DNA from: Candidatus Zixiibacteriota bacterium
GTDB taxonomy: Bacteria; Zixibacteria; MSB-5A5; GN15; FEB-12
Length of the DNA stretch: 64,000 nt
Assembly: GCA_029860345.1 (NCBI GenBank)
Contig: JAOUBJ010000011.1
Location: 64,303-128,302, forward strand
Direction of reading: 5' to 3'
Shown here: positions 8,143 through 61,350 of the stretch, in pieces
Layout of the letters: the number at the start of each line of letters is the position of its first letter
How positions within the stretch are numbered: position 1 is the first letter of the stretch
The notes under the pieces: generated by a model
What the model saw: only the letters and a program-made list of their open reading frames with translations
Told to the model about the DNA's origin: nothing
Database searches by the model: none
Program-made: the position numbers and the translations under genes

Positions 8143-9473
8143 GTTTTGTATCGAGAACGAAATTCAGACTCAAGGACTTCGCCCGTTTTAACCCGACCTG
8201 TCGGCTGATCGCCTCAACGATTATCGAGTGGCGCGACCGGATGTCGCCCCCGCACGAGGCTGTTGGAATTGCTCGTTCGGTGATCAACCTGGCCAAAGCT
8301 GCCCGTATCTGCCCATCACCGGGAAGACTGCGCAGACTTGAAAGCAAACTCAGGCAACGTATCGATCGGATGGACCCATCGCAACTCGAGTGGGATCAGA
8401 TCTTTCCCCACAGCAGTCCGCGCCAGATTCGCAAAGGAGTCATCCTCAAAAGGCCGGTGTCGGACCGAGAAAAGGGTGTGTTGTTCATTGCCTTCGAGGA
8501 CCACTGGCTCAGACTCCTGCGCTATGCCGACCTGAAGGCCCTGCATCGTAAGTACCACTTGGTGCTGGCCCCGACCTGGTCACCACCCCATGATCTGCCG
8601 ATGACGCTGGCGGCAAAAATGTGGCCGGGTACCCTGTTCAACATTATGAGCGCCGTTGTCGATCATGAAGCCTTTGCCCGCCTGGCCGACAACCTCGTGA
8701 GCATCCCTTTGATATCATCCAACTGGGTCAACCCGGACGTTTTTGCCGGGGACGACGATGTACCGAAAGAGTTCGACATCGTCATGCTGGCCAATTTTGC
8801 CGTGTACAAACGGCACTGGCTCATGTTCGATGTCCTGTCCAGGCTACCGCCGACCACGAAACTGCTCCTGTTGGGACGTGGTTGGGAGGGTCGTTCGGCT
8901 GAAACGATTATGGCCGAAGCACGCGCTTTCGGGAGTGAAGATAAAGTCATCATGAAAGAAGGGCTGTCCGACGCCGATATGGTGCGGGCCATCAAGTCGG
9001 CCAAAGTCAGTCTGATTTTCTCCGGAAACGAAGGGGCCTGCGTGGCGGTGGTCGAGGCGATGTTCTCAGGAGTCCCGGTGGGACTCTTTGCCGACGCCAT
9101 CATAGGTTCCAAGGCGTATGTGAACGAACAGACCGGTTGCCTGTTTACCCGTTCAAACGTCGTTCGAAAACTGAGCGAATTCATCCAAAACTATCGGCAA
9201 TACCAACCACGAAAATGGGTACTTGAGAACGGGGTATCATACGTCGAGAGCACCAGGATTCTGAACGAGGCCATCCGCTCAGCAGCGTTGGACATGGGTG
9301 AACAATGGACGTTGGACATTCATGAGCACCAATGGCGGCCCAACCCGACCTATCTCTCAGATGACATCTGCCGGGAGATGCGCCCCCACTACGACAGCTT
9401 CGAAAGTGCGTTCGGGATACCTCTGATCACGGCTGGCGTAAATGACGACGATCCCGCCCCAAACAAGGTTTGA
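8139..9473 (+). CDS. putative glycosyltransferase (divergent GT-B)
   Basis: 444 aa. 'SGNEGACVAVVEAMFSGVPVG' resembles a GT-B C-terminal domain. ATGA overlap with the upstream gene. The last codons and the stop lie inside a repeat unit (9457-9484). Confidence 0.5.
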   Translation: MSFVSRTKFRLKDFARFNPTCRLIASTIIEWRDRMSPPHEAVGIARSVINLAKAARICPSPGRLRRLESKLRQRIDRMDPSQLEWDQIFPHSSPRQIRKGVILKRPVSDREKGVLFIAFEDHWLRLLRYADLKALHRKYHLVLAPTWSPPHDLPMTLAAKMWPGTLFNIMSAVVDHEAFARLADNLVSIPLISSNWVNPDVFAGDDDVPKEFDIVMLANFAVYKRHWLMFDVLSRLPPTTKLLLLGRGWEGRSAETIMAEARAFGSEDKVIMKEGLSDADMVRAIKSAKVSLIFSGNEGACVAVVEAMFSGVPVGLFADAIIGSKAYVNEQTGCLFTRSNVVRKLSEFIQNYRQYQPRKWVLENGVSYVESTRILNEAIRSAALDMGEQWTLDIHEHQWRPNPTYLSDDICREMRPHYDSFESAFGIPLITAGVNDDDPAPNKV

Positions 9474-9998
9474 GGCGGCCACCCAGCGGACGACGACTCG
9501 TAGGGCAGGACCCCTGTGGTCATGACAAGAGTCGGGACCCACAAGGGGGTTCCGACCTACGGGGCTACGGTGCTGGCTGATGATGAGTTGGCGGGTCCAC
9601 GCCGCGGCGCGCAGGCGAAGACGGGGCTACCCTACGATTCTTCGCCCGTTTGCAACCTCACCCTGAGCGGAGTCGAAGGGTGAACCCTACCCTAGTCAAG
9701 GTTTGAGGCGGCCATCCGCCAGTTAGTCGTGTCGGGTGCCGTCAGGTGACTCGCCTGACGGCCTTTGAGCAGCGCTGTAGGTGTCGGGCGAGGTCGCCCT
9801 ACACCACCTCAACCCTTGAACCCATACCCATAGTAGGTCAGGACCCTTGTGGTCCTGACAATTGCGTCAGGTCCATAAAGGACCTGACCCACAAGACTGG
9901 CTGATGATGAATTGGCGGATCCACGCTGTGGCGGGCAGGCGAAGACGGGGCTACCCTACCGAAATCCGTCCATGGCGGAACCGCTAAGAGGGTACCGC
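9457..9998. repeat. mosaic array of short palindromic repeat units (array R1)
   Basis: Units recur elsewhere in the window. CCCCAAACAAGGTTTGAGGCGGCCACCC at 9457-9484 and 9691-9717. GTAGGTCAGGACCCTTGTGGTCCTGAC-type hairpins at 9500-9560 and 9833-9895. TCACCCTGAGCGGAGTCGAAGGGTGA at 9658-9683. A ~63-bp unit occurs twice, at 9573-9635 and 9897-9959. CATGGCGGAACCGCTAAGAGGGT at 9971-9998. Confidence 0.9.
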
Positions 9999-13963: not shown

Positions 13964-13989
13964 GAGGCTTGTACAAACGTCCTTACACA

Positions 13990-14433
13990 GTAGGTCAGGA
14001 GCCCTGTGCTCCTGACAATATCACGCACTGCTATCTGCGCAGGGCAGAACCGCTACTGGTCCGGCCGATATTCGTGGGCTGCGGGGTGGAAGCCACTTGT
14101 GGCCGTCCTCGTCTGCCTGTGACAATGGCGGGTTCACGCCACGGCGCGCAGGCGAAGACGGACCCGCCCTACTGAAGATGACGCGGGGGCATTAGATTCA
14201 TGCCTCGACTCCGCTCGGCATGACATGAATACGCGCGAGGCACGAAAAACAGGCTTGCCTGTGTCCGTCATGCTGGCGCAGGCCAGCATCCAGTCTTTGA
14301 ACACCGACCTGGATTCCGGCCTTCGCCGGAATGACGTGCACTGAATCTTTCGCCATTGGGCGGGCAAACCACCTCTAGCCGCCCTAGTCTGCCGCTTCAC
14401 AATGGCGGAACCGCTAAGAGGGTTCCGCCCTAC
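13990..14433. repeat. mosaic array of short palindromic repeat units (array R2)
   Basis: GTAGGTCAGGAGCCCTGTGCTCCTGAC at 13990-14020. The GGCGGGTTCACGCC...GCGCAGGCGAAGACGG...CCCTAC unit at 14122-14172. GCGCGAGGCACGAAAAACAGGCTTGCC at 14231-14261. Two GTCAT-hairpin units in opposite orientation at 14267-14295 and 14309-14335. CAATGGCGGAACCGCTAAGAGGGTTCCGCCCTAC at 14398-14433. Confidence 0.9.
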
Positions 14434-14592
14434 TATTGACAGCAGCGGCACTCCGTCAGTCCCCCATACTTGCATGGCCCACGAAGACGCACACCGTGCA
14501 CGGTTTGGTCCGCTTGGATATATAAACCACTTTCAACTTGAAAACGACATCGATCGTACAGATATTAGTGACAACTATGAAAGCACTGTTTC

Positions 14593-23103: not shown

Positions 23104-23167
23104 CACCATGGATGTGCCGTTGTGCGACCCCGCGCGACGGCTACACAACCTCACCGTGAGCTCCTTA

Positions 23168-23694
23168 GTAGGGTGGGTCCGTCTTCGGACCCGCCATTGT
23201 CATCAGCAGATGTGGACATCTGCCAGTCACTGAGACTGTCGGCGGAGACAAGCCCCGCCGCTACGCGATAGAGCGCGAGGACGTACACCAGGCACGAAGA
23301 TGGATTCCCGCCTGCGCGGGAATGACACATGCGGCGCGGGGGTGACAGAGAGGCGGGCGTTGACCACCCTTCGACTCCGGGCAGGGTGAGATCTGAATGG
23401 GTTCGTAGACGGCCACCTCATGGTGAGCGGAGTCGAACCATGAACCTCTGGAATCTTATCCGAAGAGAATCCCGCGAGGCGCGGGATGTCGAAACCACAA
23501 CGGGTTTCGACCTACTGCCTGAAAAGGACAAGAACGAGTCCATTTTGCGGTGCAGGTCAAATGGGCCAATTTCCTTCCTCAAAGTCCCCTCTCGAGAGGG
23601 GATTTAGGGGTGTGTTATTCTACTTTTGGCAGACTAGGACGTCTGCCGCCCACAGAAAGAGAAGATGGATGCCGGATCAAGTCCGGCATGACAG
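23168..23694. repeat. mosaic array of short palindromic repeat units (array R3), between convergent genes
   Basis: GTAGGGTGGGTCCGTCTTCGGACCCGCC at 23168-23203. CAGCAGATGTGGACATCTGCC at 23204-23226. GAAGATGGATTCCCGCCTGCGCGGGAATGAC at 23297-23327. CACCCTTCGACTCCGGGCAGGGTG at 23361-23390. GGTGAGCGGAGTCGAACC at 23419-23444. TCCCCTCTCGAGAGGGGA at about 23586-23603. GAAGATGGATGCCGGATCAAGTCCGGCATGAC at 23661-23694. Confidence 0.9.
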
Positions 23695-23708
23695 ATTGTG
23701 GACTATCC

Positions 23709-28085: not shown

Positions 28086-28095
28086 GGGACAGACG

Positions 28096-28989
28096 ATGCT
28101 CGGGCAATTGGTGGAAGACTATCTTCAGTATCTCAAGCTCGAACGCGGATTGGCAACCAATACATTGACCTCCTACCGTCGGGATTTGCTTGAGTTTGTG
28201 GCGTCGCTTAAGGTGCAGGAGCCTTCGAAGTTGACTCCTCGTCTGGCTCAGGATTATGTCTCACGCCTGATCGGATCATCATTGAAACCGGCTACGATTG
28301 CTCGAAAGATATCCAGTGTCAAGCAATTCGCCGTTTGGCTGGGTGAGAGTGGTACATTGAAGCAGAATCCGTTTGCCGGATTGTCGGCTCCTCGGATTGC
28401 GCGCTATCACCCCCCATATCTTTCACCCGGAGAGGTGGCTCAGATAATCGATGCCATAGACACTAAAACGCCGACCGGTCGGCGCGACCGGACCATGCTG
28501 GAATTACTGTACGGGTCCGGGTTGCGGGTGTCGGAACTTTTGAACCTCAGAACTTCAGACATCGAGTTTGAAGCCGGGTTTCTCAGAATCGTCGGCAAAG
28601 GCAACAAGCAGCGGCTGGCTCCTCTGGGTGGCCCGGCCGCCTCTGCCCTCCATACCTATCTGGACAATCAGTCAAAACCAGAGGCTGACTCCGGCTACCT
28701 GTTCGCCAACCGCCTGGGGCGACCTTTCTCCAGGCCCGGCCTGTGGAAAATCATCAAACGGGCAGTGACCAAAGCCGGGATCGCCAAACCGGTTTCGCCC
28801 CATACATTTCGTCATTCTTTTGCCACCCACCTCCTGGAGGGAGGCGCCGACCTGCGGGTAGTGCAAGAAATGCTCGGTCATGCCGATATATCTACAACGC
28901 AGATATATACAACTGTTGACCGGGAATACCTGATTGCTGAACACAAAAAGTACCATCCTCGAGAATTGGCCGGGACCAAAGACGGCTGA
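28096..28989 (+). CDS. xerD: tyrosine site-specific recombinase, XerD/XerC type
   Basis: 'YLKLERGLATNTLTSYRRDL' N-terminal SAM-like domain. Catalytic 'SPHTFRHSFATHLLEGGADLRVVQEMLGHADISTTQIYT' (R..H-R-H..Y). ATG at 28096 avoids overlap with comF. Confidence 0.8.
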   Translation: MLGQLVEDYLQYLKLERGLATNTLTSYRRDLLEFVASLKVQEPSKLTPRLAQDYVSRLIGSSLKPATIARKISSVKQFAVWLGESGTLKQNPFAGLSAPRIARYHPPYLSPGEVAQIIDAIDTKTPTGRRDRTMLELLYGSGLRVSELLNLRTSDIEFEAGFLRIVGKGNKQRLAPLGGPAASALHTYLDNQSKPEADSGYLFANRLGRPFSRPGLWKIIKRAVTKAGIAKPVSPHTFRHSFATHLLEGGADLRVVQEMLGHADISTTQIYTTVDREYLIAEHKKYHPRELAGTKDG

Positions 28990-29932: not shown

Positions 29933-29945
29933 CCGGCTCGCCTGT

Positions 29946-30160
29946 GTCACTCCCGCGAAGGCGAGAATCCATCTGCCCAAGCTGGCGATCAAAACCGAAG
30001 ATGGACCCCCGCCTGCGCGGGGGTGACAGATAAGCTTCAACAACGCGCGAAGCGCAAAAAAAACGGGCTTGCCCGCCGCCCCAAACAAGGTTTGAGGCGG
30101 CCACCCAGAGATTGGAAACTCTTTAACAAGTGTCATTCTGGCGAAGGCCAGAATCCAGTC
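29946..30160. repeat. mosaic array of short palindromic repeat units (array R4)
   Basis: GTCACTCCCGCGAAGGCGAGAATCCATCT at 29946-29975 and its inverted partner at 29998-30030. GCGCGAAGCGCAAAAAAAACGGGCTTGCCC at 30045-30075. CCCCAAACAAGGTTTGAGGCGGCCACCC at 30079-30106. GTCATTCTGGCGAAGGCCAGAATCCAGTC at 30132-30160. Confidence 0.9.
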
Positions 30161-30173
30161 TCCCCAGTGGCCC

Positions 30174-31337: not shown

Positions 31338-31468
31338 CTGGTCCTCCTCATTTGATGCTCTTGTCTCTGTCCACCGTCGAGATGGTCAGACGCTTGATAT
31401 TCGTTAATAAGACGTCTATTGTCAACAGATCGTTTAAGCACGGTCTTGCCCGTGTTATTCTGGGGTAG

Positions 31469-31841
31469 GCCGGAATCCAATCTTCAGTTTCCATGTCATT
31501 CCCGCGAAGGCGGGAATCCACTCTTCTCTTAGAGACCTGAAAATTCTATCCGGGTGGATCGAACGCCGCAGGAAGTATCAGCCGAGACATCAGCCACCGC
31601 TGATAAGGTTCACCCCTCGACTCCGCTCGGGGTGACAGGGTCAAGCCCTGTTTCTCGCGTTTCGCGCGCGATCCACTAATGGTGAGCGTCGGATGGCACC
31701 CTCAAACTCGGTTTGGTGGTGATTCTGTTTTTCTCCGACCCAAACTAGGTCTGAGGCGACCACCCGGAAATCGGAGCCTCTACAACAAATGTCATTCCCG
31801 CACTCCCTTTGTCATTCCCGCGAAGGCGGGAATCCATCTTC
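31469..31841. repeat. mosaic array of short palindromic repeat units (array R5)
   Basis: GTCATTCCCGCGAAGGCGGGAATCC at 31495-31526. CACCCCTCGACTCCGCTCGGGGTG at 31609-31638. CTGTTTCTCGCGTTTCGCGCGC at 31642-31669. An inverted pair of the GGTGGC..CTCAAAC..GGTTTGG unit at 31691-31719 and 31739-31765. One truncated plus one full GTCATTCCCGC unit at 31791-31841. Confidence 0.9.
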
Positions 31842-31906
31842 TTGAAGGTCGAAACCCTGCCCCGAAGGGATCTCCAACACAATCAGAAAGAACACAGACG
31901 CGGGAA

Positions 31907-39245: not shown

Positions 39246-41435
39246 TTATCTGCGTTGCTTTCGTTTTTTCGACCGCCCGCCGGGACCGTGCGGAGCCGGT
39301 TTCTTGCGAGTCGACAAATCGGCCGGAAACAAGTCTATCTCGTGACGCTCCTTGTCGACTTTCATGACACCCACGCGGACACTGTCGCCCATCCGGAACA
39401 CCTGCCGCGTCCGTCGACCCACCAGGCGATATTGCTGTTCCTCGAACAGATAGTAATCATCATCGATTGACGATATTCGCACCATTCCCTCGACCCCCAG
39501 TTTGTCCAGCCGCACGAAGAAACCAAAACTGGTAACGCCGCTTATAACACCGGTGAATTCATCTCCGACATGTCTGGACATGTACTGCACCTGTTTGATT
39601 TTGATGGCGTCACGTTCGGCTGCTTCGGCTACCCGCTCTGTCTCAGAACAGTGTTTGGAAGCATGGTCGATCACAGCCGGGACCCTTTTTGCAAAGGCGG
39701 GTGCGTAGCCACCGTTTGAGAGTTGTCTCAACAGGCGATGCACCAGCAAGTCGGGATAGCGCCTGATGGGTGAGGTGAAATGCGTGTAGTGAGTAAAGGC
39801 CAACCCGAAGTGACCGATGTTGGATCGTTGGTAGACAGCTTTCTGCATCGAGCGCAGCATTAATTCGTTTATGAAATCCGCTTCCGGGCGGTTCTTGATC
39901 TGATCCAGAAACCGCGCAAACTGTACCGGCTTGATGTTTGGCGAAACCGGAAAACGCAGACCAAGCCGGGACATCATGGCCGAGAACTCTTCCATTTTTT
40001 CCAGGCTGGGTCGGTCGTGAACCCGATACAGAAACGGCAGGGCGCGACGAAAGACCTCAAGGGCCACCGCCTTGTTGGCCACCAACATGAACTCCTCGAC
40101 CAACCGATGCGCCTCCAGCCTGACGCGGTTGCCCAGTTCGATCACCTCCCCTGAATCATTAAGAATCAGCTTAGCCTCAGGTAGATCGAAATCAAGCGAA
40201 CCCTCATTAAATCGTCGCTTGCTCAGAAGATTGGCCAATTCGCGCGCCGTCTTTAGAGAATCAACCACGCGCTTAACCTTGGGGGGATGGTCTGTGGACC
40301 CATCGAACAACGCCTGGACCTCTTCGTAGGAAAGGCGCGCCCGCGACTTGATAACGCTGTCGGACAGTTTCCAACTCAGCAGCTTGCCCTTGAGGTCGAA
40401 CTGCATCGTGCAGGTGTGGGCCAGCCTCTTCCGGTTCGGTTTCAGCGAACAAACATCGTTGGAGAGAACTTCGGGCAGCATCGGCACCACCATGCCGGGA
40501 AGATAGACCGAATTGCCGCGCTCGAAAGCCTCACGGTCGAGGCTGCTGCTCGGCTTGACAAAGAACGAAACATCGGCAATGTGCACACCCAGGGTATATC
40601 CGGTTTTCGTCCGGACAATATTAATGGCGTCGTCGTGATCCTTGGCATCTTCCGGGTCGATGGTATAGATTATCTCTTTGGTGAGGTCTACCCGGCGCTC
40701 GAATTCTTCGTCGAGTGCACGACCGGCCGCCTGCTCCGCTTCGTTGAGAACGTCGTCGGGAAACTCGTCGGCCAGATTGTGATTGCGGATTACCGTCTTG
40801 AGGTCAACGCCCGGTTCACCGGGGAAACCGATCCGCTCGACCACTTTGCCTTCCGGATTGAGATTGGGGTTGGCCCAATGGGTCAGACGGGCCACCACTT
40901 TCTCGCCGTCCCTGGCTTTCAGACTTTCTCGCGCCGGGATGTAAAGTTCTCGCGGCAGCCGAGCGTTATCCGGCACCAGCGTGCAGAAGTTTTCCCCCCG
41001 GCAAAACTTGCCCACTATGTTTCGGTCGGCCCGCTTGAGCACCTTGAAAACCGAGCCCGCTTTTCGCTCACCCCGCTGACCGGTCAGACGGACCATCACC
41101 TGGTCGCCATCCATGGCCGTGAGCACCTGAGTCGGCGGGATCATGATGTCCTCAGTTTCACCTTCACGGATCAAAAAACCGGTGCCGCTGCGCGTCATCT
41201 GAAATCTTCCGGTGGCGATATTCATCTCATCGGCCAACCCAATGCGACTGCGTTTGAGCTTGACCAACTCACCGGAATCGAGCAACAGCTTGAGCAGATG
41301 GCGGAACTTCCGGTAATCCGGCTGGGGAATACTGAGCGCTTTGGCCAGTTCCTTGGCCTTCATCGGGTGATAGGATTTCTCTCTTATGAAATTGAGAATG
41401 GTCTTGGAATCGAACTTCATGTGGGCAAGATACAT
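39246..41435 (-). CDS. rnr: ribonuclease R
   Basis: 729 aa. Cold-shock-like N-terminal domains. RNB core ('IDPEDAKDHDDAI', 'YLPGMVVPMLPE', 'HFGLAFTHYTHFTSPIRRYPDLLVHR'). S1 domain and a basic tail. Alternative start at 41420. Confidence 0.9.
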   Translation of the reverse strand: MYLAHMKFDSKTILNFIREKSYHPMKAKELAKALSIPQPDYRKFRHLLKLLLDSGELVKLKRSRIGLADEMNIATGRFQMTRSGTGFLIREGETEDIMIPPTQVLTAMDGDQVMVRLTGQRGERKAGSVFKVLKRADRNIVGKFCRGENFCTLVPDNARLPRELYIPARESLKARDGEKVVARLTHWANPNLNPEGKVVERIGFPGEPGVDLKTVIRNHNLADEFPDDVLNEAEQAAGRALDEEFERRVDLTKEIIYTIDPEDAKDHDDAINIVRTKTGYTLGVHIADVSFFVKPSSSLDREAFERGNSVYLPGMVVPMLPEVLSNDVCSLKPNRKRLAHTCTMQFDLKGKLLSWKLSDSVIKSRARLSYEEVQALFDGSTDHPPKVKRVVDSLKTARELANLLSKRRFNEGSLDFDLPEAKLILNDSGEVIELGNRVRLEAHRLVEEFMLVANKAVALEVFRRALPFLYRVHDRPSLEKMEEFSAMMSRLGLRFPVSPNIKPVQFARFLDQIKNRPEADFINELMLRSMQKAVYQRSNIGHFGLAFTHYTHFTSPIRRYPDLLVHRLLRQLSNGGYAPAFAKRVPAVIDHASKHCSETERVAEAAERDAIKIKQVQYMSRHVGDEFTGVISGVTSFGFFVRLDKLGVEGMVRISSIDDDYYLFEEQQYRLVGRRTRQVFRMGDSVRVGVMKVDKERHEIDLFPADLSTRKKPAPHGPGGRSKKRKQRR

Positions 41436-41562
41436 GGGACGCTACAGGCTCGTCAAGCCATTTTTGGCACATTCGCGCCAAAATGGCACCCATAAATGGG
41501 TTTTTTACTGCTACGCACCCTGCAACTCTAGCGTGTGCCCGGCAGATGCTGGCGTGTGCCCG

Positions 41563-42248
41563 ACACGGTACCCCACCCAGAGCGTTTCGCGGCGGGTGGG
41601 TTTTCCGATGTCACGCTGCCAGCTGCGGCAGGTCACAATCCCCGCCTTCGGCGGGACTCAAGACCTGACACAACTCCGACACGCGGGATCGAAAGACGTC
41701 GCTGAAACAGTGCGCGCGGAGCGCGAAAAACAGGCTTGCCTGCTCAACCTGAGCGGAGTCGAAGGATGAAACCGCTCCTGTCTGTCGCAGGTGCTGTCAG
41801 GCAGATGGGTGGCACCCTCAAACCCGGTTTGGGGGTGACTCTGCACGTTGCGGCAGGTCTTGCGAATCAGCGTTAGCGGATTTGTGTGACCTGCCGCTCT
41901 CTTCTCGTAGGCACATCTGTGTCAGGTCACAATCCCCGCCTTTGGCGTGGCTCAAGACCTGACACAACTCTGACGGTCACCCCGAGCGCAGTCGAGGGGC
42001 GATTGTTCCGTGACCGGCAGATGTCCACATCTGCCGCCGTGTCATTAAACACGGTACCCCACCCAGAGCGCTTCGCGCCGGGTGGGTTCTCCGATGTCAC
42101 ACTGCCTGCCAAGTTCGGCGGCATCCCTCCTGCGGCGGACCTTCGGCGCAGGGATGCCGCCCTACTAAGAGAAGATGGATTCCCGCCTGCGCGGGAATGA
42201 CTAAATGGACATTAGTTAGGTGGGTCCGTCCTCGAACCCGCCGATTAC
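41563..42248. repeat. largest mosaic array of palindromic repeat units (array R6), in the divergent rnr/DUF401 intergenic region
   Basis: A ~52-bp unit occurs twice, at 41563-41614 and 42050-42099. A ~52-56-bp unit occurs twice, at 41629-41680 and 41919-41974. Also copies of GCGCGGAGCGCGAAAAACAGGCTTGCC (41711-41742), GAGCGGAGTCGAAGG (41745-41770, 41975-42002), GGTGGCACCCTCAAACCCGGTTTGG (41807-41835), GGCAGATGTCCACATCTGCC (42014-42038), GAAGATGGATTCCCGCCTGCGCGGGAATGAC (42171-42201) and GGTGGGTCCGTCCTCGAACCCGCC (42216-42248). Confidence 0.92.
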
Positions 42249-42432
42249 ACAACGTTGCGCGGGGTCCTTCTCGCCGCAGGCGGGTGAGACCCTGCGCGCG
42301 GAGGACCAGTTGGGTCACACTCCGCCACGGCGGACCAGGACCCAGCTGAATAGAGCGCCAGGGCAAACGACGACATCTGCCGCCCACGGCACATCAATTG
42401 ACAATCGCGGCCCATAGCCGTTTCTTCCCACA

Positions 42433-43710
42433 ATGGAAGCTGTCAAACTGCTCGCTCTGTTCGTTCTGATTGTCATCGCGCTCAGGTTCAAACTCTCGGT
42501 AGGCATTACACTGATCATCGCCGGACTGGCCACGGCGCTATTGTACGCGATACCCATCGGTCAATTGGCCGAAGGTTATTGGCAACTGGTGCAGTCGCCC
42601 AAGTTCATTTTCCTGACCTCGGTGGTGCTGTTGATCACGCTCATGGGATCACTTTTGAAAGAAGTTGGATACCTCGACAAACTCTCGTCGGCCGTTCAAG
42701 GATTGCACGGTGGGCAACGCACCGGTGCGATGGTCCTGCCGCCGTTGATCGGATTGATGCCGATGCCGGGCGGGTCGCTTTTGTCGGCGCCGCTGGTCGA
42801 CCGCGTGTTGAATGATCGGCGATACAAACCGGAGTTTCGCACCGTGACGAATTACTGGTTCAGGCATATCGCCGAGTTTGCCTGGCCGCTCTATCCGGGC
42901 ATTGTGTTGTCCGAAGCGATCACCGGTCTGCCGATTGGCGATGTAGCCTTGCTGCAACTTCCGCTGACCATCATGATGGCCATCATAGGTATCTTCTTCT
43001 TCATACGCACGATCCAACCGAGCGCCGCTAACTCGCACGGCACAGGCACGGCACTGATCGGAATTATCGGCGCGCTCTGGCCGATTGCATTGGTCATTCT
43101 CATTTACGGCATCGCCCGGATCGAACTGGCCTGGGCGTTGCTGATCTCGATTGCTGTCATGCTGATGGTGACGAGGCCTAAACGCGCGAACCTGTGGCGG
43201 GCAACCAAAGAAGGTTTGTCGTACAAACTCATCCTGCTGGTTTTTGGCGCGCTGTCATTTCAGACAACTCTTGAGTTGTCAGGTGCGATTGAGGCTATAC
43301 CGAGACTCTCCGCCGGGTACAATCTGCCCCCGGAACTGATCATCTTCCTCGTTTGTTTCGCAGCCGGCATTCTCACCGGGATGGTGGCCGCCTATGTCGC
43401 AATCGGCTACACAATCCTGGCCGGGTTGCTGTATCAGCACGGCATTGAGCCGGGCTATATCATGCTGGCTTACTTGTCCGGCTACTTTGGCATGATGCTC
43501 TCCCCGGCCCATTTGTGCCTGGTGCTCACCAACGAGTATTTCAAAGCCGACTTATCACTGGTTTACCGCCGCCTCGCCCCACCGCTGACCCTTTTGCTTC
43601 TGGGCGGCCTTCTGCTCTACTTTTCCGGATGGCCGGAGTTGTTCGGCGATGAATCGCTTTCTCGCGCTTCGCGCCTTTGTATCCTCACCCTGAGCGGAGT
43701 CGATGGGTGA
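42433..43710 (+). CDS. DUF401-family polytopic membrane protein (putative transporter)
   Basis: 425 aa with more than 10 TM segments. Family recalled from overall pattern, not searched. The last ~20 codons and the stop are encoded by repeat units (43650-43710). Confidence 0.55.
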   Translation: MEAVKLLALFVLIVIALRFKLSVGITLIIAGLATALLYAIPIGQLAEGYWQLVQSPKFIFLTSVVLLITLMGSLLKEVGYLDKLSSAVQGLHGGQRTGAMVLPPLIGLMPMPGGSLLSAPLVDRVLNDRRYKPEFRTVTNYWFRHIAEFAWPLYPGIVLSEAITGLPIGDVALLQLPLTIMMAIIGIFFFIRTIQPSAANSHGTGTALIGIIGALWPIALVILIYGIARIELAWALLISIAVMLMVTRPKRANLWRATKEGLSYKLILLVFGALSFQTTLELSGAIEAIPRLSAGYNLPPELIIFLVCFAAGILTGMVAAYVAIGYTILAGLLYQHGIEPGYIMLAYLSGYFGMMLSPAHLCLVLTNEYFKADLSLVYRRLAPPLTLLLLGGLLLYFSGWPELFGDESLSRASRLCILTLSGVDG

Positions 43711-43757
43711 ATCTACCGTGATGCGACCCGTCCCAAACAAGGCTTGAGACGTCCACC
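43650..43757. repeat. three repeat units spanning the 3' end of the DUF401 gene (array R7)
   Basis: GAATCGCTTTCTCGCGCTTCGCGCC at 43650-43675. TCACCCTGAGCGGAGTCGATGGGTGA at 43685-43710, which contains the stop. CCCAAACAAGGCTTGAGACGTCCACC at 43732-43757. Confidence 0.85.
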
Positions 43758-43766
43758 TGTCGAGAT

Positions 43767-44408
43767 TCAAATCAAGAAGGTCAAGTACAGACCCAAACTC
43801 TCACCGTCGATCTTCACCGGGGAATCACCAAAACCGTATTCGATCTTCGTAATTCGTCCACTGACACAGAAGCTTTGGTTCCACACATAGCCGATTTCCC
43901 CAAAATAGCCCAGCGCGTTGTCAAACTCAAATGTCAGATTATCGAAATCTTCATCAAAGGTCGGATTCATGTGATAGGTAAGACCGGCGCCCAGGCGAAG
44001 CTTGTCGCGTTGGTAGAAGAGCGAACCTTCCAATGGATGCCGTGAGAACTTGGAATCCAGATCATCAACATCAGCGGTCCGGTCAACCAACCATCCCAGG
44101 GTCAATTGAAGCCTGAGTGGTGTCTTTTTGATTCGGAAGGCTGCACCCAGATAAATATGAGCCCTTCCCCCGGCGGTAACGCTTGCGCTGCCTTCAGTAT
44201 ACCCCGGGACTCCCTGAGTATAGATGTAGGTGCGGTATTTAGCCAGTTTATCGCCACCAGTGGTCAGAGCCCCTCCGAGCACGATTTCGAATGAGCGCGT
44301 CTTTTTTGCGTGAGCGTCCTCAGCACAAGGAGCTAAGGTGGCGGTGGCTATGATAAGAAAGTAGACTACGATGACGATGGCTCTCTTTTGCATGAAGCGA
44401 CCTTTCAA
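43767..44408 (-). CDS. small outer-membrane beta-barrel protein (OmpW/porin-family-like)
   Basis: Signal peptide 'IVIVVYFLIIATATLAPCAEDAHA'. About 8 amphipathic beta-strand segments. Alternative start at 44393. Confidence 0.55.
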   Translation of the reverse strand: MKGRFMQKRAIVIVVYFLIIATATLAPCAEDAHAKKTRSFEIVLGGALTTGGDKLAKYRTYIYTQGVPGYTEGSASVTAGGRAHIYLGAAFRIKKTPLRLQLTLGWLVDRTADVDDLDSKFSRHPLEGSLFYQRDKLRLGAGLTYHMNPTFDEDFDNLTFEFDNALGYFGEIGYVWNQSFCVSGRITKIEYGFGDSPVKIDGESLGLYLTFLI

Positions 44409-44590
44409 GTTCTGCTATGTCGGGCATGACCAATATAGCACGCTGCAATCTCTTGTCCTCGTACCCCGCTGCAGGGGTTGAATGCAATATAGGGAATGGT
44501 TCACGTCGGGGCAAAGTCTTCCTGTCATGGGTAGTGCAAGGATTATTGTGTAAATTGGGGATTGGGGTTTGGTTTGAGTTTTCTAAGTGA

Positions 44591-44619
44591 TTGACAAAGA
44601 CGACAACAATGGCTATATT
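44591..44619 (+). promoter_or_regulatory. candidate sigma70-type promoter
   Basis: TTGACA (44591-44596), 17-nt spacer, TATATT (44614-44619), about 110 nt upstream of the ATG at 44732. Confidence 0.45.
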
Positions 44620-44731
44620 AACCCAGTCCCGCATCTGCACACAATGCGGAATCTATGACAGGCAATTGAATAGTACTAGCATGCTAACGCATTGGACTTA
44701 AGTACCATCAACCCTCTTGTAAGGAGAGTGA

Positions 44732-46060
44732 ATGTCTAAACCTTGTGACCTCACCATGGTCCCATCCCCGTTTGGACCAATTCTTCCCCGCAAACTTGCC
44801 CCACTGATTGTCCTGCTGATGTTGTTCACCGGCGGGGCGCGATCTGCCGGCGAACAGGCTGTTCCATTCAACGCTACCGAGGACCAGCTTGCCGGCGACT
44901 CGGAGGAGGCTCAGACAACAGTGCACAATGTCAACCAGCCGCCGGAGTTGTCGCCGCTCTCAAACGTCACTGTCGACGAACTCGCCACCGTTTCATTTGC
45001 TGTGGCCGCGACCGACAGCGACGGCCCCCCACCGCTATTGACCAGCTCCGCCCTTCCGGGCAGCGCCACCTTCGATGATCTCGACGGAGACGGCATCTAC
45101 ACTTTTGAGTGGATCACCACCTACGATGATTCCGGCTCCTACGATGTCACCTTTTACGCCACCGACGCCGACTTCCCAGCCGATGTCGACTCGGCCGAGG
45201 TAATCATCACGGTGAATGACGTCAACCGAACACCGTGGCTGCTAGCCCTGCCAAACCAACCGGATTCGGTCATGGAGCTTGACACAGTGCATTTTTCGAT
45301 CCTGGCCTGGGACGATGACGGTTCTATCCCCTATATCACGCTCGAAGTCAACGGCACCGGCGGCATGCTGCCCAACATGGAATTCGATCTAACCTGGGAC
45401 GGTACGTTCCAAAACGGTCTGCTGACCTTTATCCCCGACTACAGTCAGGGTGACGACAGGCCGACCTTTGTGTGGATGAGATTCTATGTATTCGATGAGT
45501 TTGATGTTAACCTTACGGACACCTCGGGAACTCAGACGATTAGGGTATATAACCGCAACCAGCCACCTGTGATAGACCCTGTGGCACCCCAGACGATTGC
45601 AGCCGGTCAGTTGTTTCATTTTGCCATATCGGCGACCGATCCTGACAATGATTCTTTATCCCTTACCCTGGATAACATGACCGCGGAGGCTGTCTTTGTG
45701 GACAGGGGTTGCGGCGCTGGTAGTTTTGAGTGGGTTCCGAATCCAAGCGACACCGGTCTGCATACTCCTTGGTTCCTTGCCTCTGACGGCATTATGGTAG
45801 ATACCATGGTTGTTGAGATCACGGTTCAGTACAATGGCTGCTGTATCGGAATCCGCGGTAACGTCGACGACGATGGTGGCGATACTATCGACATTTCTGA
45901 CTTGGTCTACCTGGTGGACTTTATGTTCATCGGTGGACCGGCGCCGCCTTGTTTTGTGGAGACCGATATGAACGCCAGTGGTATGCACGATATTTCTGAT
46001 CTTGTGTACCTGGTTGATTTCATGTTCAGTGGAGGTCCAACTCCGGTGGCTTGTCCGTAG
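44732..46060 (+). CDS. secreted protein with cadherin/Ig-like repeats and two C-terminal dockerin-like repeats
   Basis: Repeated 'NQPP(E/V)...V(A/T)..(F)..ATD(S/P)D' segments ('VNQPPELSPLSNVTVDELATVSFAVAATDSDG', 'NRNQPPVIDPVAPQTIAAGQLFHFAISATDPDNDSL'). C-terminus carries two copies of 'DISDLVYLVDFMF(I/S)GGP(A/T)P'. Confidence 0.65.
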   Translation: MSKPCDLTMVPSPFGPILPRKLAPLIVLLMLFTGGARSAGEQAVPFNATEDQLAGDSEEAQTTVHNVNQPPELSPLSNVTVDELATVSFAVAATDSDGPPPLLTSSALPGSATFDDLDGDGIYTFEWITTYDDSGSYDVTFYATDADFPADVDSAEVIITVNDVNRTPWLLALPNQPDSVMELDTVHFSILAWDDDGSIPYITLEVNGTGGMLPNMEFDLTWDGTFQNGLLTFIPDYSQGDDRPTFVWMRFYVFDEFDVNLTDTSGTQTIRVYNRNQPPVIDPVAPQTIAAGQLFHFAISATDPDNDSLSLTLDNMTAEAVFVDRGCGAGSFEWVPNPSDTGLHTPWFLASDGIMVDTMVVEITVQYNGCCIGIRGNVDDDGGDTIDISDLVYLVDFMFIGGPAPPCFVETDMNASGMHDISDLVYLVDFMFSGGPTPVACP

Positions 46061-46079
46061 GGGTCGGCAAAACCGAAAA

Positions 46080-46179
46080 CTGGATTCTGGCCTTCGCCAG
46101 AATGACAGATAGATGTGCTCGTGCTTCGACTGCGCTCAGCATGACATGATTCTGTGGGCGGCAGACGTCCTCGTCTGCC
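46080..46179. repeat. short repeat cluster (array R8)
   Basis: CTGGATTCTGGCCTTCGCCAGAATGACAG at 46080-46108. CTTCGACTGCGCTCAGCATGACATGA at 46124-46149. GGCAGACGTCCTCGTCTGCC hairpin at 46160-46179. Confidence 0.85.
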
Positions 46180-46624
46180 CCTGGTTTGTGCCCGTGTGAT
46201 CTTCAGATCGCGCGGGAGGGCACTACGGCAAAATGGGTTCGTTTGTGCCCTTTTCAAGTTTGCATAATAGGACTTGTAGCGATTCTGAGCGTTTTTCCAT
46301 TCGACGCGCACCTCTATCAATTCTATTCTTATCAATATCTGTGTTCATTGGATAGGTCCTTTTACCAACCAGTGTGCACAGGTATCTTGGTGGGTGTTGG
46401 TAGGGTATTTGTGGGGGGTTGCCGGGGTTTCTGGTTGTCATTGTGGATCGTTTGAGTTACATTGTGCAAAGTCAGGGTCCCTGTTGTTCGACCTTGAGAT
46501 CTGGAGGCGAATCTAGGACACTTGGCTGGAACAATAGAAGTGTCTTAGCCCAGTAAATATCAAAGGAACGATTACGGACAGTTGGTGGGACTTAGGTGAA
46601 CACAGTGGTTTTCGTGGCGGCAAG

Positions 46625-58138: not shown

Positions 58139-58163
58139 GGGCCGCGCTGCGGCCCTTTCTTTT
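58139..58163 (+). terminator. hairpin plus T-tract between nifS and mnmA (terminator/attenuator candidate)
   Basis: GGGCCGC-gct-GCGGCCC (58139-58155), followed by TTTCTTTT. Confidence 0.45.
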
Positions 58164-58173
58164 GATGGACATT

Positions 58174-59394
58174 ATGGCTGAATCGGTTCTGGTTGCCATG
58201 TCCGGCGGCGTTGACTCGTCGGTGGCCGCGCTCTTGTTGAAAGAGCGGGGGTACGACGTGGTCGGGGCGCACATGAAACTGTGGGACTACACAGAAGTGG
58301 GCGCCGACATGTTCCGCGACGGGCGCTGTTGTTCGCTGGATGCGGTTAATGACTGTCGTGCGATTTGTGATGCCATCGACGCACCTTTCTACGTACTGAA
58401 TCTCTCGCGGCAGTTTCGCGAAGTGGTTATCGATAACTTCGTCGACGAGTACAAAGCGGGCCGCACACCCAACCCATGTGTGCGCTGCAACACGAATGTG
58501 AAGTGGGAACCGTTTCTTCAGAAGGCGAAGGAACTTGGTTGCGACTATATCGCCACCGGACATTACGCCCAAATCGAAAGCGATGGTGAACAGTTACTGC
58601 TTCGTAAAGGTGTCGATGCCTCACGCGACCAATCCTATTTTCTCTGGGGTCTGCAACAAGACGCGCTGGCTATGACCCTGATGCCGCTTGGCGGTATGCA
58701 CAAGTCGGAAGTGCGGGAGGTCGCGCGCCGCCATGGTTTGAAGACGGCCGAAAAGGCCGAGTCGCGCGAGATTTGTTTCGTGGCCGATGACGACTATCAT
58801 CGTTTCCTGCGTGACTGGGACGACAAGCAGAAGATACCTGCCGCACCGGGCGATATTGTCGATCAACAAGGCGCGGTTCTCGGACAACATGAGGGAACGG
58901 CGTACTACACTATCGGTCAACGGCGTGGGCTGGGTCTTTCGCATCCGACGCCGTTGTACGTGCTCGATATCGACGCCGACAACAATCGGGTGATTGTCGG
59001 CGACGATTCAGCCCTCTTGACGTCTGAGATGACGGTCGAGAGTGTTAACTGGATAGGGAGGATACCATTGGAAGAACCCACAGCAAGCTGTGGGCCACCC
59101 GGGCCGTCGAGATTGCCGCGTCGTCCCGCGCAAAGCGGGACTCCTCGCAATGACAACACACCGGATGATGCTTCGAGTCTCCCCGAGCGGAGTCGAGGGG
59201 CGACTAACGACGACACCCTCAACGTCTACGTCAAAATCCGCTACCAACATCCAGCCGCCGAGGCGCAACTTGTCTCCTTGACGGACAACACCGTCCGTGT
59301 TACCTTCGATACCAAACAACGCGCCGTCACACCCGGCCAGTCGGCTGTATTCTACGACGACGACGTCCTTTTGGGCGGCGGGTTGATTAGGTAA
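58174..59394 (+). CDS. mnmA: tRNA 2-thiouridine(34) synthase MnmA, carrying an in-frame repeat-derived insertion
   Basis: PP-loop 'VAMSGGVDSSVAA', 'NPCVRCN', 'ATGHYA' and C-terminal 'VTPGQSAVFYDDDVLLGGGLI'. About 45 extra residues lie between 'VNWI' and 'VKIRY'. Alternative starts at 58162 and 58165. Confidence 0.9.
   Translation: MAESVLVAMSGGVDSSVAALLLKERGYDVVGAHMKLWDYTEVGADMFRDGRCCSLDAVNDCRAICDAIDAPFYVLNLSRQFREVVIDNFVDEYKAGRTPNPCVRCNTNVKWEPFLQKAKELGCDYIATGHYAQIESDGEQLLLRKGVDASRDQSYFLWGLQQDALAMTLMPLGGMHKSEVREVARRHGLKTAEKAESREICFVADDDYHRFLRDWDDKQKIPAAPGDIVDQQGAVLGQHEGTAYYTIGQRRGLGLSHPTPLYVLDIDADNNRVIVGDDSALLTSEMTVESVNWIGRIPLEEPTASCGPPGPSRLPRRPAQSGTPRNDNTPDDASSLPERSRGATNDDTLNVYVKIRYQHPAAEAQLVSLTDNTVRVTFDTKQRAVTPGQSAVFYDDDVLLGGGLIR
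59081..59215. repeat. palindromic repeat modules inserted in-frame within mnmA (array R9)
   Basis: CCCACAGC-aa-GCTGTGGG at 59077-59094. GTCGTCCCGCGCAAAGCGGGACTCC at 59120-59144. CCCCGAGCGGAGTCGAGGGG at 59181-59200. The last two belong to families seen in the intergenic arrays. Confidence 0.8.
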
Positions 59395-61099: not shown

Positions 61100-61110
61100 C
61101 ACTCCTGACC

Positions 61111-61350
61111 TCACCCATCGACTGCGCTCAAGGTGACAGAGGGTAGCCGTCGCGCGTGGTCGCACAACGGCACTTGAGAAGATGGATTCCCGCCTGCGCG
61201 GGAATGACAAAGAAGCGCCGGAGTAACAAAGAAGGTCGGGAATGACAAAGAAGCGCCGGAGTAACAAAGAAGAACAAGTAGGTCGAAACCTGACTTCGCC
61301 GGGTGACAGACCGAAGAAGGCGCACCACCCTTCGACTCCGTTCAGGATGA
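61111..61350. repeat. repeat cluster (array R10), including a 38-bp-period tandem duplication
   Basis: TCACCCATCGACTGCGCTCAAGGTGACAG at 61111-61139. GAAGATGGATTCCCGCCTGCGCGGGAATGAC at 61177-61208. GGGAATGACAAAGAAGCGCCGGAGTAACAAAGAAG occurs twice, at 61200-61234 and 61238-61272. CCACCCTTCGACTCCGTTCAGGATGA at about 61325-61350 overlaps the lgt stop. Confidence 0.9.

Follow-up and report, generated by a model that had tools for sequence, protein, structure and literature searches.

Arrays of short hairpin repeats of several families in a Zixibacteria contig, the largest lying between the divergent rnr and DUF401 genes

In 64 kb of a Zixibacteria MAG contig (the whole stretch analysed, hereafter the window) we found ten arrays composed of closely packed hairpin units from more than eight families. 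They are probably build-ups of short, non-coding, REP-like and non-autonomous hairpin repeats of several families in one Zixibacteria lineage, and add one more example to the known kinds of bacterial palindromic-repeat clusters, without being a new kind of element. Our analyses established the family membership of the units, by sequence, as well as the conservation of their hairpins. The range of two tagged-hairpin superfamilies (CGTC/NTS-SRM and GTAG/RAYT) now includes the Zixibacteria, a candidate phylum for which metagenomes are almost the sole source.

Results

Extent and reproducibility of the arrays

An earlier note on this DNA had listed ten clusters built from common hairpin units, and all of them were located at or near the places it had given, the shared units recurring across the ten in variable order and orientation. 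It had also proposed at least 8 families; more than 8 were counted, several of these 'families' having only 1-2 copies in the window. The combined length of the arrays was 3.6 kb, and perfect 7-bp hairpins occurred at 15.7 per kb within them versus 0.94 per kb outside. Four arrays lay in convergent spacers, 3-4 in tandem ones, one in a divergent spacer and one inside a gene, so that the view of most arrays as lying at gene 3' ends holds only roughly; R6 is the divergent case and R9 the intragenic one (in mnmA). No tRNAs were found. Readings of the arrays as CRISPRs or as integron attC sites were rejected because the spacing was irregular and neither a cas gene nor an integron integrase adjoined them. 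The arrays other than R6 and R9 were the following (no strand assigned to the arrays; signs give the orientation of units).

9454..9998, R1: F3, GTAG REP doublet 9500-9560, F5 long GTAG units, F2
13986..14436, R2: GTAG REPs, F5, F2 (-), F7, F1 pair (14266 +, 14309 -)
23166..23703, R3: GTAG hairpins, F6, F1 (-) 23300-23327, two F2, F1 variant 23670-23697
29941..30164, R4: three F1 (29945 +, 30001 -, 30131 +), F7, F3
31447..31843, R5: three F1 (31453, 31494, 31810; all +), F2 (-), F7 (-), two F3
31790-31801, in R5: F1 half-unit, 19 nt upstream of F1
43650..43760, R7: F7-like unit, F2 (43684-43710, holding the DUF401 stop codon), F3
46074..46186, R8: F1 (-) 46080-46107, F2 (-) 46118-46146, F6 46160-46182
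61110..61350, R10: two F2 (-) (61110-61136, 61324-61350), F1 (-) 61182-61209, half-unit tandem array
61196..61272, minus strand, in R10: tandem array of F1 half-units, period 19/38 nt (TRF), adjoining the F1 tagged end

Collapsed or chimeric repeats from short-read metagenome assembly could in principle create such arrays, and one Logan contig (L003) starts at 42263 and ends at 46105, which are array edges, indicating that the repeats break short-read assemblies. However, ENA (two samples), JGI (two samples) and Logan assemblies were 99.98-100% identical over R1 and R3-R10, R6 being wholly covered by agreeing assemblies, and the mnmA gene stays in frame through R9. The concern of the earlier note about assembly chimeras or collapsed repeats was thus not borne out, four independent assemblies being in agreement, and we regard an artefact as hardly credible. 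At this level of identity all the assemblies represent one strain and therefore offer no empty and filled sites at that scale.

The rnr-DUF401 spacer

R6, with about 18 hairpin units, was the largest array (0.87 kb) and filled the divergent rnr-DUF401 spacer, whose whole length is 997 bp. It had been placed earlier at 41563-42248 between these two genes; the setting stood, as did the gene identities, which Pfam supported, and the true extent proved to be 41528 to ~42395. The duplication of two long units in swapped order was recovered as an A-B...B-A arrangement, in which the copies of unit A (41563-41623/42049-42109) were 92% identical and those of unit B (41620-41680/41914-41974) 89% identical. 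Hairpin units folded as DNA reached -8.9 to -19.3 kcal/mol. The features of this region were as follows.

39246..41435, minus, rnr (RNase R), left flank of R6; Pfam RNB/CSD2/OB_RNB/S1
41427..41456, minus, rnr promoter-like site TTGACG-18-TATCTT, outside the array
41528..42395, no strand, R6 array
41528..41565, plus, two 17-nt direct copies, period 21, with the F6 left arm GGCAGATG
41563..41614, plus, F8 copy 1, 52-nt hairpin unit
41629..41674, plus, F9 copy 1, long imperfect palindrome
41713..41742, plus, F7, two small hairpins linked by an A-run
41743..41770, plus, F2 copy
41807..41843, minus, F3 copy, GTCA-tagged on the minus strand
41850..41897, no strand, F9-like 48-nt palindrome (fold of 41845-41897: -18.3 kcal/mol, z -6.1)
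41918..41968, plus, F9 copy 2
41975..42004, plus, F2 copy
42010..42044, plus, F6 hairpin GGCAGATGT-CC-ACATCTGCC
42049..42100, plus, F8 copy 2
42114..42165, minus, GTAG-tagged long hairpin GTAGGGCGGCATCCCT...AGGGATGCCGCC
42175..42202, minus, F1 copy of dRS3 / CGTC-1 / SRM type
42216..42249, plus, TTAG (GTAG-like)-tagged hairpin, related to 23168-23203
42257..42297, no strand, palindrome 'r', 41 nt, with a copy at 94% identity in MAG locus L030
42307..42348, no strand, palindrome 's', 42 nt
42361..42389, minus, F6 copy whose orthologue is the lone hairpin in the L235 spacer
42398..42403, plus, putative DUF401 TTGACA box, 30 nt 5' of the ATG, outside the array
42433..43710, plus, DUF401 gene, right flank of R6; Pfam DUF401

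The orthologous spacer was ~133 bp long with one F6 hairpin in locus L235 (RNase R 79% identical) and ~375 bp long with two F3 and two F1 units in L242 (RNase R 73% identical), while Zixibacteria with 60-66% identical RNase R carried 0-1 SRM per 3-22 kb. The growth of the array in this spacer (~133 vs ~375 vs 997 bp) is therefore recent and lineage-specific. The direct copies at 41528..41565 occupy the place of the left arm of the ancestral F6 hairpin. Both core promoter boxes remain outside R6: the rnr -35 box was retained in L235 and L242, and the counterpart of the DUF401 box reads TTGACA in L235 and TTGACT in L242. At the other end of the DUF401 gene, R7 covers the stop codon and the ~17 codons before it, and orthologues align just to residue 407-416 of 425.

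E. coli RNase R degrades REP-structured RNA. A functional link between rnr and the largest array was rejected as unsupported because close relatives have no array at this locus.

The near-perfect palindromes of 41-53 nt in R6 (41850-41897, 42257-42297 and 42307-42348) can be read as paired TIRs, and neisserial NIME regions also contain Correia MITEs, so the units might be classical MITEs (TIR plus target-site duplication) moved in trans by an IS DDE transposase encoded elsewhere. We consider this very unlikely, since neither target-site duplications nor other flanking direct repeats were seen by eye at the unit junctions, where units abut one another without spacers, no transposase was found in 82 kb of contig, and the tags of the F1 and GTAG units are asymmetric, as is typical where HUH or GIY-YIG systems recognise hairpins.

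An in-frame array inside mnmA

R9 is a hairpin-repeat insertion inside a conserved gene.

58162..59394, plus, mnmA, host gene of R9; Pfam tRNA_Me_trans with the M and C domains, and alignment to PDB MnmA
59080..59211, plus, R9, 132-nt in-frame insertion of 44 codons

The insertion is built of three hairpin units (59077-59094, 59113-59154 and an F2 at 59175-59205) and adds 44 residues between two MnmA domains while the reading frame stays open. Residues 307-350 had no counterpart in PDB MnmA or in Zixibacteria orthologues of 351-362 aa. The loop varies at this point, relatives carrying from 0 to ~80 extra codons.

Family F1 and the CGTC-tagged superfamily

The F1 motif GTCATTCCCGCG[A/C]AGGCGGGAATCC was present in 12 copies in the window, six on each strand, versus 0.03 expected. 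The earlier note had recognised one family with the dRS3 pattern ATTCCC-N8-GGGAAT, and indeed we found five exact matches to it in 64 kb (0.00 expected), all of them F1, the other seven F1 copies being compensated stem variants of the pattern. The SRM expression HGTCWYN(0-2)YYVSBRHN(0-5)WNVSBRGN(0-2)RNCYNB gave 12 matches in the window, F1 units accounting for 11 of them, whereas 100 first-order Markov random sequences averaged 0.49; 11 of the 12 F1 copies thus matched it. Extrapolated to ~170 SRM per Mb, this density would rank the genome with the most SRM-rich ones known. The consensus from alignment A1 was TGTC-ATTCCCGC-GnAG-GCGGGAAT-CCA. In this alignment a TGTC/CGTC tag precedes a stem of 8 bp that opens with AT; the loop is 4 nt long and the tail is CCA. 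In the GTCA tag, G, T and A were invariant and C nearly so. Pairing was kept in 96% of the alignment cells, with both-sided changes in 4/8 pairs, compared with 53% at most in slid controls, which served F2 as well; the fold as single-stranded DNA reached -8.9 kcal/mol (z about -4).

On this sequence evidence F1 is assigned to the CGTC-tagged superfamily, in which the CGTC-1 REP, the neisserial dRS3/NTS and the SRM are the same element. No copy passed the test for NTS proper (CGTCATTCCCGCGMAVGCGGGAATCYRG with up to 1 mismatch; PMC11893778), the best ones having 2 mismatches to the 28-nt NTS. These sat at positions 1 (T/A for C) and 28 (T/C for G) in 5/6 best copies and in the stem for 14309-14336.

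At least 120 stretches carried the exact F1 31-mer; their sources, among them three Zixibacteria MAGs, belong to more than 15 phyla, which demonstrates a cross-phylum spread. Phages were rejected as main carriers, the matches there being just two exact ones in IMG/VR and one jumbo Microcystis phage.

Elsewhere among bacteria this superfamily is partnered by Ssn, a cd10448-type single-domain GIY-YIG nuclease of ~95 aa. Ssn binds single-stranded DNA at the hairpin and cleaves it a few bases upstream of that structure, and its gene typically has SRM on its flanks (PMC11893778). The link between dRS3/NTS-type hairpins and Ssn nucleases, published in 2025, was absent from the earlier note. Ssn-type GIY-YIG ORFs lay within ~0.5 kb of the exact 31-mer in 5 of the 120 loci listed, with the layout F1 array (+) - ssn - F1 (-) in L057. 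No ssn was found among all window ORFs with a regular expression and an Ssn profile HMM, two contig extensions of ~8-10 kb (~18 kb; 82 kb in total) gave no match to the profile, and none of the best 240 Ssn homologues listed in protein searches with Ssn queries was labelled Zixibacteria. One candidate (P0296) was rejected because its source was an unrelated organism.

GTAG-tagged hairpins

About 12 GTAG-tagged hairpins were found inside the arrays (for example at 9500, 9560, 9777, 9833, 13990, 14172, 14433, 23168, 23515 and 42165). In the whole window a lenient test for GTAG plus hairpin gave 44 matches versus 23 in random sequence. GTAG stood directly before 20-40-nt hairpins in multiple copies, copies per family in the 64 kb being few (2-4), and one clear inverted doublet of REPIN type was present (9500-9529 on the plus and 9530-9560 on the minus strand). 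As judged from their sequences, these hairpins belong to the REP/REPIN superfamily. Their coexistence with CGTC-type units had been missed by the earlier note.

The partner of GTAG REPs and REPINs is RAYT, an IS200-like Y1 transposase (Nunvar 2010; Bertels & Rainey 2011, PMC3116915). As had been stated before, the window contained no transposase or RAYT, since a phmmer search with E. coli RayT matched no ORF in it or in the ~8-10 kb extensions. The sole match was a Y1_Tnp ORF in the related Zixibacterium L236 (E = 1.9e-9). It is flanked by hairpins resembling those of R1 at 9736-9762 and 9777-9808, through a short match of weak significance (28 nt, 89%, E = 0.23).

The remaining families and the origin of the arrays

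F2 has an invariant 12-nt loop, GAGCGGAGTCGA, with 17 matches in the window versus 7.85 expected, 12 of these being in hairpins within arrays. Its alignment had 93% of cells paired and both-sided changes in 4/7 pairs, and the hairpins fold weakly in the energy model. F3 gave 14 strand matches at ~8 loci versus 0.75 expected. A literature search for the F2 loop strings had no match. No partner enzyme was identified for F2, F3 and F6-F9, the recurrent-neighbour and Ssn searches having been made for F2: no gene recurred beside F2-type units in 1.8 Mb of loci, no ORF family was flanked repeatedly by F2-like hairpins, and no Ssn was found by 110 F2-bearing viral stretches.

The tagged families (F1, F2 with its GAGCGGAGTCGA loop, and GTAG) might instead each be the substrate of a single-strand enzyme of its own, with common hot spots. 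In that case F2-type units would make up a second tagged superfamily of pan-bacterial spread, paired with a protein yet to be discovered, and the shared targets would be single-strand-prone hot spots including the MnmA loop. The tandem copies of F1 half-units (period ~19-21 nt), which lie on the side cut by Ssn and have a homologous layout in L058 and L057, could be footprints of NTS/SRM multiplication. As a whole, this proposal seems to us rather unlikely.

The conserved pairing of F1 and F2 through compensatory changes, together with the position of many arrays past stop codons in convergent or tandem spacers, could also reflect selection at each locus for cis-acting RNA elements, such as terminators, stabilisers of mRNA 3'-ends or 5'-UTR regulators. 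Read on the other strand, F7 consists of a short hairpin with a T-run after it, and in E. coli REP elements are known for stabilising the mRNA upstream of them. Nevertheless, T-runs were absent from most units, Rfam families gave no match, and the one terminator-like site in 41300-42600, below the shuffle mean, was outside the array. Both orientations are used, as by F1, in close relatives the rnr-DUF401 spacer functions with 1 or 4 units in place of 18, and units also occur in frame within mnmA; moreover, SsnA is inactive on RNA (PMC11893778). We consequently judge RNA function at each locus to be an unlikely origin of the arrays.

The favoured reading is still the accumulation of REP-like repeats, in which several families would have gathered at a small number of permissive sites. 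New units may insert beside or into existing hairpins where the DNA tolerates them, and tolerant sites would be those between core promoters, past stop codons and in the MnmA surface loop. This mode of insertion is a proposal, and neither target-site duplications nor insertion junctions could be discerned. We infer that cognate Ssn and RAYT are encoded elsewhere in the host genome and spread or maintain the repeats.

Discussion

The rnr-DUF401 spacer offers a clean natural growth series (~133, ~375 and 997 bp), the core promoters being spared throughout. How NTS/SRM-type repeats spread was left open by the paper describing Ssn (PMC11893778), and the mnmA hot spot and the directional F1 half-unit copies are testable clues to it. 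For MAG annotation it matters that arrays of this kind interrupt short-read assemblies, give rise to spurious ORFs and change the C-termini of proteins.

Among known systems, F1 is comparable to the neisserial dRS3/NTS/SRM, with which it shares a 20-nt core (ATTCCCGCG[A/C]AGGCGGGAAT), the 8-bp/4-nt hairpin, intergenic mosaic clustering and a wide phyletic spread. It also keeps the upstream GTC and the C just past the palindrome, positions critical for cleavage and binding in PMC11893778. In contrast to the neisserial case, the host is a member of the Zixibacteria and no ssn gene was found in 82 kb; for the same reason, the host being a Zixibacteria MAG, F1 falls outside the taxon-bound definition of dRS3 (Neisseria, flanking RS elements to form NIMEs, target of Nf prophage integration).

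The definition of CGTC-1 REPs in the survey of these elements (PMC3733652) comprises a CGTC/TGTC/CCTC tag, an 8-bp stem with A-T and then T-A, a 4-nt loop and an unpaired CCA tail. F1 has in common with them the CGTC/TGTC tag, the 8-bp stem starting with A-T/T-A, the 4-nt loop and the CCA tail, and likewise the frequent inverted pairing of two units and the coexistence with GTAG REPs. Five phyla are listed in the survey, and Zixibacteria are not mentioned in the sections consulted; the units of the window lie mostly within multi-family arrays and not as isolated dimers.

With REPIN-RAYT systems (PMC3116915) the window shares the GTAG tag followed by a hairpin and the inverted doublet at 9500-9560, but no RAYT was found in this contig stretch and the link to L236 consists of short similarities.

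The BIME- and NIME-like mosaic proposed in the earlier note holds in that extragenic spacers combine palindromic units of several types whose order and orientation vary, as in E. coli BIMEs and Neisseria NIMEs. The arrays behave and are organised like E. coli BIMEs but are not members of that class. BIMEs are defined by Y/Z REP types, fixed linker motifs and IHF/gyrase sites, and the units and linkers found here are unrelated to E. coli REPs. In NIMEs, as in our arrays, other repeat families stand between dRS3-type units, but the NIME definition uses neisserial RS elements and the families other than F1 have different sequences.

Finally, R9 resembles the Rickettsia palindromic elements (RPEs) in being a palindromic repeat, in frame within a conserved gene and absent from orthologues; RPE-6 and RPE-4 were equated with CGTC-1 and CGTC-4 units by Di Nocera et al. 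2013 (PMC3733652). R9 differs from RPEs in host phylum and in the sequence of its units, and the mnmA site is a hot spot that has received different inserts in different relatives.

Reality and content of the arrays

Repeat finding and direct reading bore out the earlier note's proposal of ten clusters (R1-R10) built from common hairpin units in varying order and orientation. In the window, the F1 family was observed 12 times against 0.03 expected, F3 gave 14 strand matches at approximately 8 loci (0.75 expected) and the F2 loop gave 17 matches (7.85 expected), 12 of them within hairpins inside the arrays. Perfect 7-bp hairpins were 17 times denser in the arrays (15.7 per kb) than elsewhere (0.94 per kb). 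Scans of the window for Rfam RNA families and for tRNAs found none. The two long units said to be duplicated in swapped A-B...B-A order in R6, the largest array, were recovered by the same two approaches, and Pfam identified its divergent neighbours as rnr (RNase R) and DUF401, as had been proposed; the bounds assigned to it (41563-42248) were too narrow, approximately 18 units tiling 41528-42395. Outside the window, the long palindromes and the families F3 and F6-F9 were found only in a Zixibacteria MAG (L046), in 'CSMAG' MAGs that are unclassified (L008, L030, L068 and L111) and in a small number of the metagenome loci with rnr relatives (L235, L242, L251 and L273).

Assembly artefacts could also produce such arrays. 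By exact protein matches (NCBI MDH3891781-MDH3891810, on a contig of 433,501 bp), the window belongs to a candidate division Zixibacteria MAG. It was 99.98-100% identical to independent assemblies (ENA ERZ27296467 and ERZ27296364, JGI 3300022308 and 3300022206, and Logan runs), which jointly covered R1 and R3-R10, with all of R6, and carried the same arrays. A Logan short-read contig (L003, window 42263-46105) both started and stopped at array edges, so the array repeats break up metagenome assemblies; the array structure is reproducible despite this breakage. The arrays are genuine and non-random.

In one ENA assembly (L316 12646-14339, window 59405-61099), a 1-nt indel, which reflects strain variation or else faulty assembly, cuts a 564-aa hypothetical gene beside R10 into ORFs of 172 and 403 aa. 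The arrays also produced spurious ORFs of 90-130 codons (window 41386-41769, 41886-42200, 14134-14475 and 23329-23607; L014 4036-5226), and a 55-aa JGI gene call in R3 is probably another. In other phyla, arrays gave recurring pseudo-peptides such as 'DSRLRGNDG' and 'WIPAYAGMT', both translated F1. A XerC/D-type tyrosine recombinase gene (28075-28989; Phage_int_SAM_1 and Phage_integrase domains, precomputed Pfam, L234) lies about 1 kb upstream of R4, with no evident connection with the repeats.

F1 hairpins and the ssn gene

The F1 alignment consensus, TGTC-ATTCCCGC-GnAG-GCGGGAAT-CCA(TCTTC), matches at the sequence level three published definitions, CGTC-1, the dRS3/NTS core and SRM. Di Nocera et al. 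(PMC3733652) equate CGTC-1 with neisserial dRS3 and define it by a tag, an 8-bp stem starting with AT, a 4-nt loop and a CCA tail, the same architecture as in F1. The dRS3-like pattern previously noticed in one family was indeed present in F1 (5 matches, 0.00 expected). According to a 2025 paper (PMC11893778), dRS3 is the core of the 28-nt 'NTS', and NTS-like motifs, named 'Ssn-related motifs' (SRM), are spread across phyla. Their cognate protein is SsnA, a GIY-YIG nuclease of 94 aa with a single domain, which binds this hairpin in single-stranded DNA alone and makes its cut a few bases to the upstream side; the ssn gene often has the motif on its flanks. In the window, 11 F1 copies matched the SRM expression (0.49 expected); none qualified under the strict NTS criterion (at most one mismatch), the best having two mismatches, at the outermost positions in 5 of 6. 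The F1 hairpin is kept through compensatory change, with 96% of stem cells paired (at most 53% in slid controls) and changes on both sides in 4 of the 8 stem pairs (CCCGC/GCGGG, CTGGC/GCCAG, CCGGC/GCCGG).

The exact F1 31-mer, GTCATTCCCGCGMAGGCGGGAATCCATCTTC, was found in at least 120 stretches of a species-representative genome collection. Hosts among the matches listed were Chloroflexota (Dehalococcoidia, Anaerolineae), Desulfomicrobium, Gammaproteobacteria (Lysobacter, Legionella, Povalibacter), Planctomycetota (Pirellulales, Phycisphaerae), three Zixibacteria MAGs, Patescibacteria, Spirochaetales, Nitrospirales, Terriglobia, Cyanobacteria, Bacteroidota, Eggerthellales, Campylobacteraceae and Caldiserica. 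F1-like units were also present in large replicons of Azospirillum, Legionella, Cupriavidus and sphingomonads, as well as in N. gonorrhoeae records. The exact 31-mer was rare in viral contigs (2 of 2.9 million in IMG/VR). Separately, the 274-kb cyanophage MaAM05 of Microcystis (MW495066.1, hit H26) had 15 places resembling an F1 half-unit plus unit.

Among the matches listed, 5 of 120 8-kb stretches had an Ssn-type ORF within approximately 0.5 kb of the 31-mer (Pfam GIY-YIG E = 4e-18 to 2.5e-16; profile HMM E = 1e-47 to 6e-37). One of these loci, L057, has an F1 array (+), ssn and F1 (-) in this order, the same layout as the published NTS-ssn-NTS arrangement (PMC11893778).

Tandem half-units of F1 (tag plus left arm, GTCATTCCCGC) preceded the full hairpin by 17-25 nt on its own strand, among loci L004-L123 and at two places in the window:

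31790-31842, F1 half-units
61196-61272, F1 half-units

TRF detected a 19/38-nt tandem array in R10. Across phyla, such an upstream half-unit accompanied 25 of 114 exact F1 matches, compared with one case on the opposite strand, and the arrangement recurred in N. gonorrhoeae, in a Nitrospirales MAG and beside ssn in L057. The side bearing the half-units is that on which SsnA reportedly cuts.

GTAG hairpins, F2 and the search for partner genes

The arrays contain approximately 12 GTAG-tagged hairpins, among them an inverted doublet at 9500-9560. As the earlier note had stated, there was no RAYT gene (REP-associated tyrosine transposase) in the 64 kb, nor in approximately 18 kb of flanking contig; the same span had no ssn gene, and the 240 best Ssn homologues listed in protein searches included no Zixibacteria-labelled sequence. 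A Y1_Tnp ORF (E = 1.9e-9) was found in L236, probably a related Zixibacterium (RNase R 66% identical), flanked by hairpins resembling window 9736-9762 and 9777-9808; the stretch of similarity is short and does no more than hint at a tie between these hairpins and the window units.

F2 has a nearly invariant 12-nt loop, GAGCGGAGTCGA, a tag that is often TGTC or CCTC and a stem that varies with compensation (93% of cells paired; both sides changed in 4 of 7 pairs). Related hairpins, CCCTGAGCYTGTCGAAGGG, shared loci with F1 in Dehalococcoidia, Polaromonas and Sphingobium, and the F2 core 17-mer was present in 110 viral-contig stretches. Hairpins of this type (loop GAGC-N2-3-GTCGA; stems that vary with compensation; CGTCAT or TGTCAC as a frequent tag) were widespread (window F2 copies; L009, L014, L025, L087, L074, L105, L104; viral L124-L233). 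In the loci examined, viral stretches included, neither an Ssn gene nor any other recurrent gene lay beside them, and the F2 sequence strings had no match in the literature searched.

Growth of the rnr-DUF401 spacer

Of 80 metagenomic loci encoding relatives of RNase R, none but the nearest two (L235 and L242) retained the divergent DUF401 neighbour.

Spacer between rnr and DUF401 (locus; RNase R; spacer; hairpin units)
L235; 79% identical; ~133 bp; one (F6)
L242; 73% identical; ~375 bp; two F3 and an F1 pair
Window; reference; 997 bp; ~18

The F6 hairpin by the DUF401 promoter and the -35-like boxes of both genes were common to the three loci, and in the window the boxes lie outside R6:

41451-41456, TTGACG, -35-like box of rnr
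42398-42403, TTGACA, -35-like box of DUF401

Units have thus piled up in a presumably neutral middle beside an older hairpin. Where RNase R is 60-66% identical, Zixibacteria had 0-1 SRM per 3-22 kb compared with 11 in the 64-kb window, so the expansion is lineage-specific. The only terminator-like site in 41300-42600 was outside R6. Directly upstream of the rnr -35 box, a palindrome, TTTTGGCA-N6-GCCAAAA (41462-41483), kept in L242 (TTTTGGCATGATTACGCCAAA) and not evident in L235, may be an operator for a rnr regulator.

Repeats within genes

R9 sits within mnmA (58162-59394). PDB MnmA aligned with residues 6-308 and 348-409 of the window protein, so that residues 307-350 (nt 59080-59211) form an in-frame addition of 44 residues, encoded by three hairpin units, including F2, between the PRC-barrel and C-terminal domains. 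Close homologues from related Zixibacteria had 0, ~10 or 40-80 extra residues in exactly the same loop, their peptides being translated F2 ('HPERSRRAT'), F1 ('PAKAGIQ') and the 59113-59154 unit ('LPRR...PRND'). Such varied repeat-derived inserts are direct evidence of insertion and of an intragenic hot spot at this loop. The last ~17 codons and TGA stop of the DUF401 gene (43655-43710) come from F7-like and F2 units; its orthologues align only to residue 416 (L235) or 407 (L242) of 425.

Comparison with known repeats

No insertion junction flanked by a target duplication could be made out in the arrays. The best explanation of the arrays is an accumulation of tagged, REP-like hairpin repeats that come from two or more known superfamilies (CGTC/NTS-SRM and GTAG/RAYT) and from lineage-specific families. 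Known repeat kinds are thus placed in a further phylum, Zixibacteria. Three by-products also deserve attention: the insertion hot spot in mnmA, the directional half-unit copies of F1, and the F2 superfamily with no partner gene found. The in-frame insertion in R9 parallels that of Rickettsia RPEs, which Di Nocera et al. (PMC3733652) place in the CGTC superfamily. As to the BIME/NIME-like mosaic originally proposed, the likeness holds in the way the arrays work, but they fall outside both definitions, which are taxon-bound.
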